From IMG/VR virus record IMGVR_UViG_3300038345_000103, positions 1 through 64,000 of that record: a stretch of DNA of 64,000 nucleotides. The stretch is one strand, 5' to 3'. The notes under the pieces are model-generated. The model saw only the letters and a list, made by a program, of their open reading frames with translations. It was not told where the DNA came from and did no database searches. Source of the stretch: a virus. Taxonomy: Duplodnaviria > Caudoviricetes. Position numbers and translations under genes: made by a program. Below, in pieces: positions 6,256 to 53,224 of this stretch. The first letter of the stretch is position 1. Each line of letters starts with the position of its first letter.

Positions 6256-6534
6256 ATGAAATATGTTGGCATTATAACTATCGATGATAAAAGGTGTTGG
6301 TCTGAATGGCATAGTGGTAGCACATCAAAAACATACAGAAGCGACGGCTATGACACAAGGGAAGAGGCACAGGCATGGATAGACAGTCAGTTACCAAACA
6401 TTAAGAATGATGATGGCAAATACAAGGTTGATACAATAATTGCAAAGTTTGACAAAAAGGATTTAGTCGGGCAGTTTCCTAAGATTGACTATATGTTTAA
6501 CAATGTCCTGTGGCATAAGAATGTAACAATGTGA
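6256..6534 (+). CDS. Hypothetical protein
   Basis: ORF track; operon packing. Confidence 0.65.
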   Translation: MKYVGIITIDDKRCWSEWHSGSTSKTYRSDGYDTREEAQAWIDSQLPNIKNDDGKYKVDTIIAKFDKKDLVGQFPKIDYMFNNVLWHKNVTM

Positions 6535-6697
6535 TAGGGAGGTAAAGGATGGCTAAGGTGCGTTGTAATAATCATAGATGTGTTTATAATAAAAGAGCTT
6601 ACGAAGAAGAGATGTACGGTGAATGCACGTTAGATAATTTAGTGTTTCTTGATAGCCATGGAGAATGTGAAGAGGTTGAATATGCAGATAAGGAGGA

Positions 6698-7183
6698 ATG
6701 CAGATGAATAGTGAATATATAGGCAAATTACAGTTAAATGACAAGGTAGACATTACAGACCCGTGTTATGATAAGGATGTGTGGTGTCGTATGACAAGTG
6801 AATGCAAGTCTGGAGAATACACCGGATATGCAACTGTCGCTGATACGGGATGGGGAAAGCGAGTTGTATCTATTGCCATCTATAAAGATGATAAGATTGT
6901 AGATATAGACTCAATGGAACTGATTGGTAATATCGGAGTTGATGCAGGACTTGCAGGCTTCTTCAATAATAAGCCTGACTTTATTGGTCACGAATGGCAT
7001 GACTTCTTAGATAAATTCATAGACTATGATGAAGACAAAAATTATTGGGATTGTGGCTACGGCTTATTCTCCGAATCAGGCTATGGAGATGGAAGTTATA
7101 ATGTATATGCAACTCCTAATAGGGATGCATTTATGATTGTGTTCATCGGTGACGACGATGATGACGACGATTACGAAGATTAA
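6698..7183 (+). CDS. DUF4241-like protein
   Basis: DITDPCY, IGVDAGLAGFF and SGYGDGSY motifs; acidic tail. Confidence 0.55.
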   Translation: MQMNSEYIGKLQLNDKVDITDPCYDKDVWCRMTSECKSGEYTGYATVADTGWGKRVVSIAIYKDDKIVDIDSMELIGNIGVDAGLAGFFNNKPDFIGHEWHDFLDKFIDYDEDKNYWDCGYGLFSESGYGDGSYNVYATPNRDAFMIVFIGDDDDDDDYED

Positions 7184-44509: not shown

Positions 44510-44697
44510 TGTACGAAGCGGCTTATAAACATATATACAGTACTTTTGTTCAGCGATTAATCACTACATCAAAAAGCAATGAATGGAAGCAGGGCGTGAA
44601 TGAGGTATTGACCGAGATGGAAAAAGTAATACCCGAAATAAAAGTAATCAGAGAAGACCTTGAAACATGGACGGAGGATTTAAAACATGGAAATTAA
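44509..44697 (+). CDS. Hypothetical protein
   Basis: ATG 44509 overlaps the upstream stop. Confidence 0.55.
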   Translation: MYEAAYKHIYSTFVQRLITTSKSNEWKQGVNEVLTEMEKVIPEIKVIREDLETWTEDLKHGN

Positions 44698-45265
44698 AGA
44701 TAGTGGAGACAGAAGAGAGTTTGCCGGCGGAGGTGTTCGTGATATGGCAGAGGGCAAGGGCGCCTGTCATTTACTGCCATTAGATATTGTTGCCGGTGTC
44801 TATGAATATGTTGATAAAACAGGAAAAGATAATATTATATTTAACCCTGCTAAGGTTTTAAATAATATCAATGAGTTTATTAGACGTGGATGCACTAAGG
44901 GTATTTATGATAACATCGCAGCTTTTGCTTATTGGCATTATCAAACACTTGAAACAGCTATGCTTGAAGTTGCAATTCACTATGAAATGGGAGCAAAAAA
45001 GTATGAACCCCGAAACTGGGAGAGGATTATGGAGACCGATACTTTTGTTGATTCAGCCACAAGACACTTCTTTAAGTTCATGCGTGGGGACGATGACGAA
45101 CCGCATGACAGAGCATTTTTATGGAATCTATTAGGTTTATTATGGACAGTAAAACAACTTGCAAAGAAGGACATCGCCAATGACTTACAAACAGGCTTAT
45201 TTGACACTATACGGCAAAATGCAGCAATGGTTACAGGACAGTCGAAGTCCCGTCTCGAAAAATAA
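44687..45265 (+). CDS. DUF5664 dATP/dGTP diphosphohydrolase-like protein
   Basis: KDSG.RREF.GG.VRD..GKG, HYEMGAKKY..RNWE, DSA.RH..K...D.DEPH. Confidence 0.75.
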   Translation: MEIKDSGDRREFAGGGVRDMAEGKGACHLLPLDIVAGVYEYVDKTGKDNIIFNPAKVLNNINEFIRRGCTKGIYDNIAAFAYWHYQTLETAMLEVAIHYEMGAKKYEPRNWERIMETDTFVDSATRHFFKFMRGDDDEPHDRAFLWNLLGLLWTVKQLAKKDIANDLQTGLFDTIRQNAAMVTGQSKSRLEK

Positions 45266-46700: not shown

Positions 46701-46977
46701 AGATATTTTAACAAAATATTTTACAGATGATAATATTAAAAACATCTGGGGAACCATGTATGGTGGGAAGGACCCTGAAACTGAATGTATTATCAGTATC
46801 GCTAAAAATGCTTTAGAACTTACTCGTGATGCAGATGAATTTATTTATATTTGGGGATACCCGGGACCCGATGCCAACCTTTATAAGTTCTCAGATTATG
46901 GCATAACATGGGCTTTTACAAGAGAAGAATTGTCTCAATACAAAACTTACGAAGAAAAGCACTATAAGGGAGAATAA
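46690..46977 (+). CDS. Hypothetical protein
   Basis: ATG 46690 overlaps the upstream gene; WGYPGPD..YG.TWA motif. Confidence 0.6.
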   Translation: MDNRDILTKYFTDDNIKNIWGTMYGGKDPETECIISIAKNALELTRDADEFIYIWGYPGPDANLYKFSDYGITWAFTREELSQYKTYEEKHYKGE

Positions 46978-46983
46978 CGACTT

Positions 46984-47055
46984 AGCCCCTTCACCAAATG
47001 GCAAGGTACAGGATTTTGATTCCTGCATGTACTGGTTCGAATCCAGTAGGGGCTG
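46984..47055 (+). tRNA. trnQ: tRNA-Gln(TTG), CCA not encoded
   Basis: Acceptor AGCCCCT/AGGGGCT; D arm ACC/GGT; anticodon arm CAGGA-TTTTGAT-TCCTG; T arm ACTGG-TTCGAAT-CCAGT. Confidence 0.95.
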
Positions 47056-47237
47056 TGCAGATAACTAAGATATTGTTATCTACATCATAGTCAGTGAGAA
47101 ACAGACTATAAACAATTCTCGTCGTTACAACGGCACGAATATATATTGAGAGAGGGTGCTTGTAGATATATATTTTTGGAGAGGTTTCGAGAACCACCGT
47201 TATTCCTCTATAAAAAAAGCGGAACGAGGGGCATCCT

Positions 47238-47415
47238 ATTCAGGTGGTGGAATGGGTAGACACAAATACAAATTCACGAAGATTTCAGCAGTTAACGGTT
47301 GGCGGTCATGCGAGGGTTGAGACTACGTGCCGAAAAAGCGGAACCAGTTGGAGAACATATACTCAAATCGTGAAGAAAAAGACCGTATGTAAGGTTCGAA
47401 TCCTTACCCTGAATA
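47238..47415 (+). ncRNA. tRNA-like RNA with a 124-nt insert in place of the anticodon/variable arms
   Basis: Acceptor ATTCAGG/CCTGAAT; class-II-type D arm GTG-GAATGGGTAGA-CAC; T arm GTAAGG-TTCGAAT-CCTTAC; ATAC/GTAT closes the insert. Confidence 0.7.
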
Positions 47416-47435
47416 TATTTTTAGAGGCGAAGCGT

Positions 47436-47630
47436 ATGAATAAAGAAAATAAAAGCATTGGAAAATGGATACCTCATTGGGTAAATAGTGATTATTTTAA
47501 TAATGAGAATCTTTTATATTTTTTAGTGTCGCATGGATGTTATTGTTCATTATGCGGATATTGGCATAAATGTGACCCATATCCAAAGTTCTGTCCTAAA
47601 TGTAAGGCGGAATTAAAAGAACCATTTTAG
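47436..47630 (+). CDS. Small Zn-ribbon protein
   Basis: GAGG RBS, ATG 47436; CSLCG..CPKC. Confidence 0.6.
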   Translation: MNKENKSIGKWIPHWVNSDYFNNENLLYFLVSHGCYCSLCGYWHKCDPYPKFCPKCKAELKEPF

Positions 47631-47764
47631 GAGACAATATGATAATACAAACTATTGATGGAAGAATCTTATATGTTGATATGTATGGACATATTTTGGC
47701 TGAATATTCAGATGGACAATGGTATGCATATATATTAACCCAATAAACAATTTTAGGAGAAAAA

Positions 47765-48308: not shown

Positions 48309-49493
48309 GTGATGTATATCGACAAATTGTTGCAGTTTGCTCAGGAGCATGGTATGATAGACCTTGCTCTCATACAGCAAGAATACGACAAGATGAAACG
48401 ACAACAAATTCTTGAAGGTCAGAAGATATGGCAAGCCTCAGACGGACGATGGAAAACTTATATTGAAGTTGCCGGTAAGAGGAAATTGATAGCCAAGAGT
48501 GACAGGGCAACTCTTGAAGCCACTATCTTCAAAATGCTGAAAGACCCTATACTTACATTCAAAGAATGCTTTGACTGTTGGATTAAGGACAAGCTTGATT
48601 ACGGAGAAATCCAACGTCAAACCTATGACCGATACACGGCAGATTTTAAACGTTATATCCACAACACTGAACTTGAACATCTTAATATCAAAAATATCAA
48701 CGAACTCTTTCTTGAACAATTTATTAAACAGCAGATTTCCAATAATAAATTGACCGCTAAGAACTGGGGTAACATGCGTATTATAATCAACGGCACCATG
48801 ATATATGCCCATAAACACGGCTACACTGATTTTCGAATCAGTTTATTTATGTCGGAACTGCAATTATCAAACAAAATGTTTGAGCGAAAAATCGTTAAGG
48901 ATAAAGAACAAGTGTTTGATAAAAATGAAGAAGATAAGATAAAGCAGTATGTAACCGACAATCCGTCCATGCTTGGACTTGGTGTGGTGCTAGCCTTCCA
49001 TACAGGTCTCAGGATTGGCGAAGTGGCTGCTCTTAAATGGGATGATTGGAAAGATGATATTCTGATAGTTCAACGTACTGAAATCAAATATAAGAATGAT
49101 AAAGGTGAATGGATAGAAGAGGTAAGAAACTTCACGAAGGGCAGAGATGGTATTAGAGAAGTCGTCCTGACAGAGGAAGCAAAGAGGGTACTGTATCAAC
49201 TTTATTCTTACACTGGACCGCAACACGATTATATTTTTATGCGTGACAATCAACGGATTAAAGCCGCATGGCTGTCAAATAAAATCGAATCGATATGCCG
49301 ATGTATCAATATTCCGCATCGTAGTTTTCATAAAATACGAAAGACATATGCTACTACGTTAATAGACGCCGGCGTAGGTGAGAATGTCATTATAAACCAG
49401 ATGGGTCATACTGAAATCCTCACCACCAAAAGATTTTACTATTATAATAAGGAAGAGATTGCCGACATCAAAACCCAACTTGATAAAGTGTAA
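48309..49493 (+). CDS. int: Phage integrase (tyrosine recombinase)
   Basis: N-terminal arm-binding region; SAM-like domain; GLRIGE, FTK, HKIRKTY, MGH and FYYY motifs. Confidence 0.93.
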   Translation: MMYIDKLLQFAQEHGMIDLALIQQEYDKMKRQQILEGQKIWQASDGRWKTYIEVAGKRKLIAKSDRATLEATIFKMLKDPILTFKECFDCWIKDKLDYGEIQRQTYDRYTADFKRYIHNTELEHLNIKNINELFLEQFIKQQISNNKLTAKNWGNMRIIINGTMIYAHKHGYTDFRISLFMSELQLSNKMFERKIVKDKEQVFDKNEEDKIKQYVTDNPSMLGLGVVLAFHTGLRIGEVAALKWDDWKDDILIVQRTEIKYKNDKGEWIEEVRNFTKGRDGIREVVLTEEAKRVLYQLYSYTGPQHDYIFMRDNQRIKAAWLSNKIESICRCINIPHRSFHKIRKTYATTLIDAGVGENVIINQMGHTEILTTKRFYYYNKEEIADIKTQLDKV

Positions 49494-51214: not shown

Positions 51215-51303
51215 CTGTCATCCCTACCTTTCCCTTTTAATAAAAGTAAATACCATGCTGCTAATAGCAAATAAAGTAAGATTCCTAAAATCCATTTCAA
51301 CAT
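51211..51303 (-). CDS. 30-aa hydrophobic peptide (not in the ORF track)
   Basis: MLKWILGILLYLLLAAWYLLLLKGKGRDDR; start overlaps the recombinase stop, stop overlaps the holin start (ATGA). Confidence 0.55.
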   Translation of the reverse strand: MLKWILGILLYLLLAAWYLLLLKGKGRDDR

Positions 51304-52310
51304 CTCATATGCACCACCCCTACTTTCTTAAAGAATCCTACTAACATATCGTCAGATGTTGCATCATTATAATGATTAACCATCTCCGGCGAATCCCAAC
51401 CGACAAATTCCTGAACAATATTCTCAGGGACGCCAGCCTTCAAAAACTGCGTTGTGGCATAATGTCTGATACTATGCCAATAAAAATCCTTGCCTATCAT
51501 AGTTGTCAATTGGGCAGCCCAATAATCCATTGAATCTACGGTAATATGTTCAGCCGGATTTGCAGTTTTAGGGAATAACCATATACTGTCAATACCCTTT
51601 GCCTTTCTATCATCCAACCACAGCTTCAAATACGGGTCAAATGGCTCCTTTAATATATACAGGTATATTTGTTTACCCTTGGAACCTTTTCCTTTAGTTA
51701 TGACCTTTTCAGGCGTCTTATAGAAGATGTTTTCCAATACACACTCTGGTGTAAAGTATGATACCTTAAAACGTGTAATCTCTGCTTTACGTCGAGCAGA
51801 GTTCATAGCAAGGCTTAACGCACATGCTATTTCATATTGTTTCTTTTCTACCAAAGTATCTAATATTGATTGTAGTTCCTCCGGTTCAAAAACGGTTTTA
51901 TCACGCACTAATACTTTAATAGGATTTTTAATCTTATTAATAATCGGACGAAAATCTTTAAATTCTTCTTCTTCATCAAGAATGTCTTCAATAAAACTTG
52001 ATAATGAAGACAAGGTTGACTTCACACGACGTAATCTGTTTGGACTCCATTCCCATTCAGACAACGCTTTACCTTGAAACTTTGTTAAATCTTTCTTTGA
52101 AATTTCAGTAAATGGCTTATTATCATTATCCGTTACATTCCAACAAAAGAAGAAGTTTAAGTCATACTTATACTGTTCAATCGTTGTCTTTGCCTTATCT
52201 GTAGATTGTAGATATTCAAGAAATGATGTAATTAAATAAGCATTTTGTCTATGAAACTTTGCAATTAATTCAGGTTTCGTAATAAAGTTGAGTTTTGTTT
52301 GTCTTGACAT
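51297..52310 (-). CDS. Tyrosine recombinase in the late region (SPbeta YomM-like position)
   Basis: SARRKAE, TKGKG, HSIRH, VGW and NHY motifs; AAAGGAG RBS before ATG 52310. Confidence 0.85.
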   Translation of the reverse strand: MSRQTKLNFITKPELIAKFHRQNAYLITSFLEYLQSTDKAKTTIEQYKYDLNFFFCWNVTDNDNKPFTEISKKDLTKFQGKALSEWEWSPNRLRRVKSTLSSLSSFIEDILDEEEEFKDFRPIINKIKNPIKVLVRDKTVFEPEELQSILDTLVEKKQYEIACALSLAMNSARRKAEITRFKVSYFTPECVLENIFYKTPEKVITKGKGSKGKQIYLYILKEPFDPYLKLWLDDRKAKGIDSIWLFPKTANPAEHITVDSMDYWAAQLTTMIGKDFYWHSIRHYATTQFLKAGVPENIVQEFVGWDSPEMVNHYNDATSDDMLVGFFKKVGVVHMRC

Positions 52311-53224
52311 CCTTGTTCTCCTTTCCAAATACTTAGCCACCTTTGACGAGTAGCCGTATAAGTATCTTCACTTTTAAAATCCTTTGGTATCCTTGTTATA
52401 ATCTCTTGTAAATTTGTTATCCTCGTTATGTCCAATGGTACACGATAACCATTAATGCCATTCTTAACTACATCACGGAATATCGGTATATCACATACAA
52501 TCACCGGCGTACCAATCATCAATGCTTCATGTACTGCCCGACAATATCCTTCAGACTCTGATAATTGAATCAAATAATCCGCATCAGAGATACGTTGATA
52601 TAAATCTTCCTGAGAAATCTGTTGATAACAATGAATCATATTATAATGATACATACTTGTATCACAATAATTATCCCAAACAAAATCCACATTCATCTTA
52701 CATAATATCTCACATAGCTGCTGCATACGCTGGCTGCCCTTTTTAGGCTGTATACGGGTACAGCTTATCAATCGTAACTTCTGATGCGATTGTTTTGGTT
52801 TTAACTTTGGTACTGGCACCAACAAGCCCTCGACATAACTACATGGTAATCCAAATCTTTTTGTAAAATTCTCTGCCGCATAACGTGATACTGCTATATA
52901 GTTTTCATTAATACAAAAAGAAGGTGGAACTTTATAATCAATCCCACCATAATCACAATGCAATATTGTATATGCCTGCTTACATTTCACATTCTTTGGT
53001 GCAGGTTTCCAATTATATGAGTTAATAAATATGTCAGTTACATAGGTTGCTGTCTTATCATAAAACTGAAAGTCATCAAACTGGTACATGAACCGCCTTG
53101 ATTGGTCATCGGTCATGATTGTTATCTCATAATCATCTTTAAATGCATTATAGAATGACAACAACCACGTATAAATCCCGTTAATCCATTTAAGATTTTC
53201 AACGTACAATAAAATCTCTTTCAT
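52265..53224 (-). CDS. Glycosyltransferase, GT-B fold (GT4-like)
   Basis: NGIYTW, RIQPKKG, SESEGY..VHEAL..GTPVI (EX7E), NGINGY. Confidence 0.85.
   Translation of the reverse strand: MKEILLYVENLKWINGIYTWLLSFYNAFKDDYEITIMTDDQSRRFMYQFDDFQFYDKTATYVTDIFINSYNWKPAPKNVKCKQAYTILHCDYGGIDYKVPPSFCINENYIAVSRYAAENFTKRFGLPCSYVEGLLVPVPKLKPKQSHQKLRLISCTRIQPKKGSQRMQQLCEILCKMNVDFVWDNYCDTSMYHYNMIHCYQQISQEDLYQRISDADYLIQLSESEGYCRAVHEALMIGTPVIVCDIPIFRDVVKNGINGYRVPLDITRITNLQEIITRIPKDFKSEDTYTATRQRWLSIWKGEQGCQDKQNSTLLRNLN

Follow-up and report, generated by a model that had tools for sequence, protein, structure and literature searches.

A predicted tRNA-framed, non-decoding RNA with a pseudoknotted cargo domain in a rumen phage contig

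In this study, we have examined a 178-nt element on the plus strand of a 64,000-nt stretch of viral DNA (positions 1 to 64,000 of IMG/VR record IMGVR_UViG_3300038345_000103; here called the window), in which the initial annotation had recognized a tRNA scaffold that carries an insert of about 124 nt and has no anticodon stem-loop. The letters of the element (window 47238-47415, which are RNA positions 1 to 178) and the covariation among its homologues confirm that description, and at the level of sequence comparison they demonstrate a real, structured and conserved plus-strand RNA gene that neither codes nor decodes. The RNA is one cargo type of a large, uncatalogued phage superfamily, and as such it is a new cargo type in an uncatalogued variant of the long-known phage "tRNA-like stable RNAs."

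Comparative evidence for the frame and the cargo

A block internal to the insert retrieved four more viral contigs, a truncated copy in Eubacterium ruminantium ATCC 17233 and, beside a terminase gene, a copy on a contig of a Lachnospiraceae metagenome-assembled genome; 19 metagenome copies came from a search with a block at the 5' junction, and the window cargo was also present in two loci found with the 3' pattern described below, L059 and L062 (L numbers are our locus handles). The resulting alignment (A2) comprises 22 distinct homologues from rumen viral and metagenome contigs and the E. ruminantium prophage, and counts given below refer to it unless the superfamily is named. A BLAST search of cultured phages matched the neighboring tRNA-Gln gene only, and the 401 sampled Lachnospiraceae genomes gave a single match, the prophage copy in E. 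ruminantium. Rumen Lachnospiraceae are the host lineage. No cargo was seen without the frame, which accompanies it in all eight complete copies from viruses or genomes; the truncated E. ruminantium copy retains the 5' half of the frame. A supposed cargo copy at L134 was discarded as a chance match within unrelated sequence.

The final structure model was preceded by an all-against-all covariation scan and was tested against 500 shuffles and slid controls. Under this model, 96.8% of the alignment cells are paired and both-sided changes occur in 25 of the 46 pairs; none of the shuffles reached the observed scores, and the slid controls were 26 to 47% paired. Conserved G.U pairs (U72.G92 and G73.U91) are compatible with the plus strand only. 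The minimum-free-energy fold of the single sequence is unexceptional (z = -0.7); therefore, the case rests on comparison among sequences. A first model, with hairpins at 93-95/102-104 and 49-52/61-64 and a helix at 80-84/125-129, was replaced after the 22-sequence alignment because position 102 covaries with 51, 105 with 48, and 125-127 with the loop of hairpin C (Table 1).

The frame consists of acceptor, D and T arms together with the partners of the U8-A14, 15-48 and G19-C56 tertiary contacts. As first described, the acceptor stem (ATTCAGG/CCTGAAT) has 7 bp and can be lengthened to 8 bp by an extra T-A pair; every one of its seven pairs has changed on both sides. The acceptor stems of the homologues (ATTCAGG, TGAGTGG, ATCTCGG, TCTCTAG and others) have almost no bases in common, yet they stay paired. 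The D arm, initially assigned to the Leu/Ser type, is of the Leu type; its 18-mer, GTG-GAATGGGTAGA-CAC, is identical to that of ordinary phage tRNA-Leu genes, and A14, G18 and A21 are invariant, with A15 and G19 nearly so. The T arm was correctly recognized by its stem and its TTCGAAT loop, in which C56, A58 and T60 are invariant; however, the stem length had to be corrected to 6 bp, and the acceptor/T stack is therefore 13 bp, not 12. The additional outer G-C pair is invariant in all 54 distinct members of the superfamily. The tertiary partners are kept throughout, T8, A14, T151, C56 and A58 without exception and A15, G19 and T54 nearly so. T151 occupies the place of U48 in a family-wide "AUG" that precedes the T stem, which accounts for it better than the ATAC/GTAT stem of the initial annotation; that stem exists in the letters, but six cells are unpaired and no compensation is seen.

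The discriminator is A in 9, T in 10 and G in 3 of the homologues. L175 and L192, the nearest relatives of the window RNA, have G where the window has A, and they share its acceptor and cargo but differ in the D stem, D loop and T loop. In L130 (5165-5352), L133 (5427-5614) and L175 (245-431), a 9-nt insertion, GACAG[C/A]AAT, enlarges the T loop to 16 nt. A correlation between the D loop (GGG/AGG) and the T loop (TT/TG) within the window type fails in the wider family.

The cargo is approximately 90% identical across the homologues while the acceptors have been rewritten; therefore, it is the cargo, and not the frame, on which purifying selection is concentrated in the window type. An ordinary tRNA with a random insertion, the situation that would have undone the initial description, was not seen in the relatives, where about 90% of the insert is kept and the acceptor is rewritten with compensation.

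Within the cargo, helix A is paired in all sequences and has two covarying pairs (UA/CG in 12/10 and AU/GC in 14/8 sequences). In helix G, pair 48-105 occurs as UA, CG and GC, and pair 51-102, which is never mismatched, as GC and AU; the non-canonical A50.G103 is replaced by C-G in L162. Because A105 covaries with T48, it is lost to the GGTT/AACC helix proposed at the outset, which in any case has several breaks and no covariation. A second proposal, GGC..GTC/GAC..GCC, survives as the helix GGTC/GACC, but this helix is a pseudoknot (B). Pair 67-147 of pseudoknot B is found as GC, UA and AU and pair 69-145 as UA and CG, and 98.9% of its cells are paired. Helix H is 100% paired, with G73.U91 changed to A-U in L174 and to G-C in L142, and the three covarying stem pairs of hairpin C occur as up to four pair types. 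A-rich linkers stand ahead of both 3' strands in the pseudoknotted cargo. The GGAG loop of hairpin C resembles a Shine-Dalgarno sequence and was considered as a ribosome decoy; however, intramolecular pairing with CUC explains it better.

Table 1. Positions of the RNA gene's parts, of neighboring features in the window and of the SPP1 member
Feature	Position	Strand	Remarks
tRNA-Gln(UUG)	46983-47056	+	181 nt upstream of the RNA gene; sole ordinary tRNA on the 75-kb contig
Promoter-like site TTGAGA-17-TATATT	47146-47174	+	64 nt upstream of the RNA; best consensus match of the region (10/12); consensus match only
Acceptor stem, 5' strand ATTCAGG	47238-47244	+	Pairs with 47408-47414; both-sided changes in 7/7 pairs (22 homologues)
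U8-G9 linker	47245-47246	+	TG in 54/54 superfamily members, including those found via the 3' pattern alone
D arm, tRNA-Leu type, GTG/GAATGGGTAGA/CAC	47247-47263	+	2/3 stem pairs covary
Cargo domain	47264-47388	+	RNA 27-151; about 125 nt in place of the anticodon and variable arms
Helix A, 5' strand TTCACGA	47273-47279	+	Pairs with 47368-47374; RNA 36-42/131-137
Helix G, 5' strand TCAGC	47285-47289	+	Pairs with 47338-47342; RNA 48-52/101-105
Pseudoknot B, 5' strand GGTC	47304-47307	+	Pairs with 47381-47384; RNA 67-70/144-147; crosses helices A and G
Helix H, 5' strand TGCG	47309-47312	+	Pairs with 47326-47329; RNA 72-75/89-92
Helix H, 3' strand CGTG	47326-47329	+	Partner of 47309-47312
Helix G, 3' strand GCGGA	47338-47342	+	Partner of 47285-47289
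Hairpin C, GTT-GGAG-AAC	47347-47356	+	RNA 110-112/117-119; 3/3 stem pairs covary
Pseudoknot K (tentative), 3' strand CTC	47362-47364	+	Pairs with hairpin C loop GAG, 47351-47353; RNA 114-116/125-127
Helix A, 3' strand TCGTGAA	47368-47374	+	Partner of 47273-47279
Pseudoknot B, 3' strand GACC	47381-47384	+	A-rich linker GAAAAA directly before
T arm, 6-bp stem GTAAGG/CCTTAC, loop TTCGAAT	47389-47407	+	5/6 pairs covary
Acceptor stem, 3' strand CCTGAAT, and discriminator A	47408-47415	+	No encoded CCA
Zn-ribbon open reading frame, 64 aa	47436-47630	+	ATG at 47436; starts 20 nt downstream of the RNA
Tyrosine recombinase (integrase)	48309-49493	+	0.9 kb downstream of the RNA
Second tyrosine recombinase	51297-52340	-	Like the first, at most 5 kb downstream of the RNA
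SPP1 member (L204)	NC_004166, 6647-6756	+	110 nt; unannotated; in the gene 8-10 "moron" segment

All homologues have stops in all three frames, except that one frame is open in L130; therefore, the 128-aa open reading frame (ORF) of the window at 47244-47630 (+) is accidental. It spans the entire RNA gene in frame with the true 64-aa Zn-ribbon gene, which gene callers could in consequence stretch across the RNA gene. A 21-aa ORF inside the insert was ruled out by frame-shifting indels in L059.

Across the whole window, ARAGORN called the tRNA-Gln gene only; over the element it reported nothing, with or without introns, and no transfer-messenger RNA (tmRNA; option -m). Rfam likewise returned only the tRNA-Gln gene at the gathering score and, at E<=10 on 46900-47700, nothing over the element, as expected for an RNA that is neither a tRNA nor a tmRNA. 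These negative results, the covariation and the stops in the homologues together bear out the original view of a tRNA-mimic noncoding RNA as opposed to a decayed tRNA, a tmRNA or an intron-containing tRNA.

The wider superfamily and known tRNA-like RNAs

A search with the D-arm 18-mer gave 25 viral loci. Some are ordinary tRNA-Leu genes, 82-84 nt in length; in others, the shared 5' end belongs to a longer gene (114-170 nt) that lies in a phage tRNA cluster and receives no ARAGORN call, and in each of these the T stem is extended at its base by one pair. The 3' pattern alone (ATG, T arm and CC) gave 105 viral loci, reduced to 46 distinct sequences; in nearly all of the 105, a 7-nt acceptor strand with perfect complementarity is present 82-205 nt upstream, together with TG and a Leu-type D arm, and this 5' half is independent of the search pattern. 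Among the 54 distinct superfamily members, acceptor pairs 2 to 6 each occur in four to five pair types and are at least 98% paired, and the discriminator is A in 21, C in 17, T in 15 and G in 1. When introns and tmRNA were allowed, ARAGORN made just inconsistent, spurious calls on a few members of the superfamily.

More than 100 phage loci, most of them within tRNA arrays, have the same frame with unrelated structured cargos of about 30-150 nt. Many compensatory pairs are likewise present in the insert of a second cargo type (141-143 nt, about 50 copies). In another cargo type, that of L011 (3718-3862, minus strand) and the L034 type, TTGGAG/CTCCAA enclose a second T-arm-like hairpin, GGGTTCGATTCCC, internal to the cargo; it is a tRNA-like minihelix nested within the tRNA frame.

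The group is defined by a compensated 7-bp acceptor, TG at positions 8 and 9, a 3-bp D stem with a Leu-type loop, and A-U-G ahead of a 6-bp T stem whose outer G-C pair is invariant, with no anticodon loop; the window RNA has every one of these features. A covariance model of the frame (R1), trained on a set that included the window but not Bacillus phage SPP1, scores the window at 78 bits, an SPP1 sequence at 66 bits (E ~1e-13) and genuine phage tRNA-Leu genes at 26-42 bits. With 66 bits, against at most 42 for real tRNA-Leu genes, SPP1 clearly has a member. It overlaps the annotated minus-strand coding sequence of gene 10 (6525-6734), for which the record notes that the protein is in conflict with the conceptual translation, and the SPP1 re-annotation paper does not mention a tRNA or noncoding RNA. 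No description of a tRNA-Leu-frame RNA family was found in the literature, the supplement of the csRNA catalogue (PMC10690425) lying outside the scope of that search.

The stable tRNA-like RNAs of phages T4 and T5 have been known for decades and are, as far as we are aware, still unexplained. T5 RNA1 (T5s03) and RNA2 (T5s06) lie in the T5 tRNA cluster and are annotated in NC_005859 as "tRNA-like stable RNA with unknown functions." Like the window RNA, T5 RNA1 has a 7-position acceptor, TG at positions 8 and 9, a Leu-type D arm (CCG-GAATTGGTAGA-CGG), a non-tRNA insert and a canonical T arm; unlike it, T5 RNA1 has a 5-bp T stem, a mismatched first acceptor pair and an unrelated cargo. R1 aligns T5 RNA1 end to end at 38 bits, which is within the tRNA-Leu range of 26-42 bits; common descent with the 6-bp-T-stem family is therefore not established, although the architecture is common to both. 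The T4 species 1 and 2 RNAs (rnaC and rnaD) are small stable RNAs of the T4 tRNA cluster whose function is unexplained. In rnaC, a tRNA-like T arm and acceptor-like pairing surround a non-tRNA core of about 90 nt; however, rnaC and rnaD differ from the window RNA in having no Leu-type D arm, no 6-bp T stem and an unrelated sequence, and R1 does not detect them. They are functional analogues only.

Outside the phage stable RNAs, the closest comparison is with class II tRNA-Leu (RF00005), with which the window RNA shares the acceptor, U8, the identical D-arm 18-mer, A15-U48, G19-C56 and the T loop. It differs in the missing anticodon arm and ordinary variable arm, the 13-bp stack and the unfixed discriminator. 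A decoding tRNA (RF00005) was rejected because neither the window RNA nor any of the homologues has a 5-bp anticodon stem with a 7-nt loop. Leucyl-tRNA synthetase identity of the Escherichia coli type needs a conserved discriminator A73; no fixed A73 is found among the homologues or in the superfamily, and tRNA-Leu identity was rejected as well. A tRNA-Sec also has a 13-bp stack, but as 8/5 and not the 7/6 found here; moreover, the D stem of the window RNA is 3 bp with an 11-nt loop, not 6 bp, and there is no UCA anticodon. tmRNA shares a tRNA-like acceptor/T-arm domain that encloses pseudoknots; however, pair 3-70 is T-A with no G3.U70, the D stem covaries, no tag frame is conserved and the RNA is only 178 nt long. 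The crossing of helices A and B resembles that of P1 and P2 in hepatitis delta virus-like ribozymes, but the linker between the 3' strands of helices A and B is GAAAAA in all 22 sequences, with no catalytic C, and Rfam gave no match. YrlA Y RNAs are also non-decoding, mimic the D arm, T arm and acceptor of a tRNA and occur in phages. In those RNAs, however, the stem that binds Ro is made by the two ends, and a loop closes the "acceptor" (Chen et al. 2014, PMC4201824), whereas the ends of the window RNA form the acceptor, which is the opposite topology; Rfam gave no match to Y RNA, and a Ro60/TROVE gene (PF05731) was not found on the 75-kb contig, which represents about 47% of the genome.

It follows from the more than 100 uncultured phage loci and from SPP1 that tRNA-like RNAs of this kind are not confined to two coliphages; one Leu-type frame, for which the 6-bp T stem is diagnostic, holds many unrelated cargo domains. 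Both of the cargo types that were tested covary, and the selection on the cargo seen in the window type suggests a modular system of phage effector RNAs. Standard annotation misses such RNAs: tRNA finders and Rfam are blind to them, and ORF callers overlay spurious genes. Through the SPP1 member, the question can be put to the test in a host that is easy to work with.

Proposed function and competing explanations

We consider it likely that the window RNA is a non-decoding, tRNA-framed and stable noncoding RNA that is matured like a tRNA and whose functional part is the cargo. With no anticodon loop, it is not a decoding tRNA. The initial annotation was right about the kind of RNA, but two of the three roles it offered have lost ground: a decoy for anticodon nucleases is unlikely, since no relative has an anticodon-like loop, and the drift of the discriminator makes charging as an aminoacylatable carrier improbable as a conserved role. 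The third, a scaffold processed by RNase P and RNase Z, fits best because of the tRNA-array setting, the missing CCA and the conservation of the acceptor, T arm and elbow while the rest varies, although the processing itself is presumed.

The RNA may be transcribed with, or in the manner of, phage tRNAs. Its frame would then direct precise excision by host RNase P and RNase Z, possibly with a contribution from the CCA-adding enzyme, and would provide tRNA-like stability. RNase P and RNase Z recognize the acceptor/T minihelix together with the elbow, and in Firmicutes it is RNase Z and the CCA-adding enzyme that mature the products of tRNA genes with no encoded CCA. Having a 13-bp stack, no anticodon and an unconstrained discriminator could exclude the RNA from aminoacylation and translation. 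The cargo is probably the working part because it is far more conserved in sequence than the frame; it would act in trans, most likely by binding a host or phage factor. With considerably more hesitation, and aware that it is rather unlikely to hold in full, we raise the idea that a single tRNA-Leu-derived frame serves phages as a general cassette for the expression, processing and stability of interchangeable RNA modules, of which the double-pseudoknot cargo of the window would be one with a specific target. Such a cassette would be the natural counterpart of the engineered "tRNA scaffold," and candidate roles for its cargos would include an RNA inhibitor of a host defence or housekeeping protein, a ligand-binding domain and a catalytic domain.

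Several observations weigh against this interpretation. RNase P and RNase Z processing, CCA addition and stability are all properties that we infer. Non-canonical T loops are common among the relatives (TGCAAAT, CGCAAAT and, in three, 16-nt loops), and the frame may therefore not be readable by every tRNA enzyme. The covariation counts derive from related sequences, and the conservation of the T and D arms in the superfamily is partly imposed by the search patterns. Support for helix H is moderate because its changes are one-sided only, and pseudoknot K is tentative because double compensation occurs in one lineage only (L161/L170: GGA/TCT). No protein neighbor is common to the nine loci compared, so that no partner is indicated. 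Furthermore, no terminator follows the RNA in the window copy, where the next gene begins 20 nt downstream; this copy could conceivably act in cis on the downstream mRNA.

As the main rival explanation, the frame itself could do the work, as a decoy or sponge for a host factor that binds the tRNA body (a tRNA-targeting defence nuclease, an acceptor-end-modifying toxin or a processing enzyme), with the cargo serving just to modulate or block it. Nothing but the frame is common to the whole superfamily, the contig keeps the RNA despite having one ordinary tRNA only, and phage tRNA clusters are known to counter tRNA-cleaving defences. We nevertheless regard this explanation as improbable, since in the window type the acceptor, D stem, T loop and discriminator drift while the cargo is nearly invariant, and since the anticodon loop, the usual target of such nucleases, is missing. 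It is quite unlikely that the element serves the Zn-ribbon ORF (47436-47630) and the integrase gene (48309-49493) in cis, whether as a leader or as a signal for processing or stability ("tRNA punctuation"). The lack of a terminator ahead of the ORF would suit such a role, as would the retention of the same downstream gene in L175 and L192; however, tRNAs or other genes follow the RNA in L059, L062 and L130, a terminator follows it in L162, no downstream gene is common to all loci, and a bare processing signal needs no invariant pseudoknotted domain of 125 nt.

The D arm is the same as in real tRNA-Leu genes, and one match to the search pattern, L015, may be an intron-bearing tRNA-Leu(UAA), judging from the sequence after its D arm. 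An unrecognized intron whose splicing restores a decoding tRNA-Leu is very unlikely for the window RNA, where the flanks of the insert contain no anticodon halves, stem, loop or variable arm; Rfam found no group I intron at E<=10, ARAGORN made no call with introns allowed, and C, not G, precedes the 3' junction. The 6-bp T stem and the drifting discriminator are foreign to tRNA-Leu, and the smallest tRNA group I introns known to us are about 200 nt, so that the 124-nt insert is well below their size. Little credence can also be given to an attP or integration-target remnant linked to the neighboring tyrosine integrase, even though its gene lies 0.9 kb downstream and integrases often target tRNA genes. 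An integrase-guided homologue search found six relatives (59-69% identity, on rumen viral contigs), none with the RNA element beside it; most copies of the RNA lie in tRNA arrays with no integrase near, and the gene is full length with covarying internal helices, whereas attP normally holds just a 3' tRNA fragment. That no tRNA finder calls the element would be expected of a decaying tRNA pseudogene with a random insertion, but 25 compensated pairs, and an insert that is about 90% identical despite nearly unrelated acceptor stems, leave that explanation with almost no probability.

Genomic surroundings

The source of the window is a 75-kb IMG/VR viral contig, estimated to be about 47% complete, that encodes a split DnaE as well as two tyrosine recombinases. 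A hairpin with an 18-nt loop and an A-rich tail occupies window 47175-47224, between the promoter-like site and the RNA. It matches the preQ1-I riboswitch at 19.5 bits (cut-off, 39; E = 0.25), which is below threshold; the match is probably due to chance because this element is not conserved upstream of the homologues. Farther upstream, the dATP/dGTP diphosphohydrolase N-terminal domain (PF18909; E = 6.6e-15) was recognized in a 192-aa ORF (44687-45265, plus strand). Such a domain is characteristic of phages whose purines are modified; a PurZ-like gene (PF00709) was not found on the 75-kb contig.

Among the other loci, the RNA is situated within phage tRNA arrays in L059, L062 and L130, and pistol ribozymes above the Rfam gathering score occur in the arrays of L059 (649-709) and L062 (1292-1362). 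The L162 copy is, from its flanking signals, predicted to be a self-contained RNA gene: only 5 nt separate the end of a promoter-like site, TTGATT-18-TG-TATAAT, from the RNA, whose last base is followed at once by an intrinsic terminator. These signals support only indirectly that such an RNA would accumulate as a stable, processed species. A second family member of about 103 nt with another cargo adjoins the window-type RNA in L174 (1032-1133, minus strand), L160 (634-736, minus strand) and L161 (549-652, plus strand), and in L174 and L160 the two are spaced by 5 nt.

In the prophage of E. ruminantium ATCC 17233 (L135, 233-445, and L139, 8924-10171, both minus strand), the copy of the RNA gene ends at position 132, where it abuts a HEARO (omega) RNA that scores 149 bits, and the 3' remainder of the RNA gene is absent within 10 kb downstream. 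Because the two abut, the bases that would act as the guide of the omega RNA come from the tRNA-like gene. An IscB gene (RRXRR and HNH domains) comes after the HEARO RNA in the E. ruminantium prophage.

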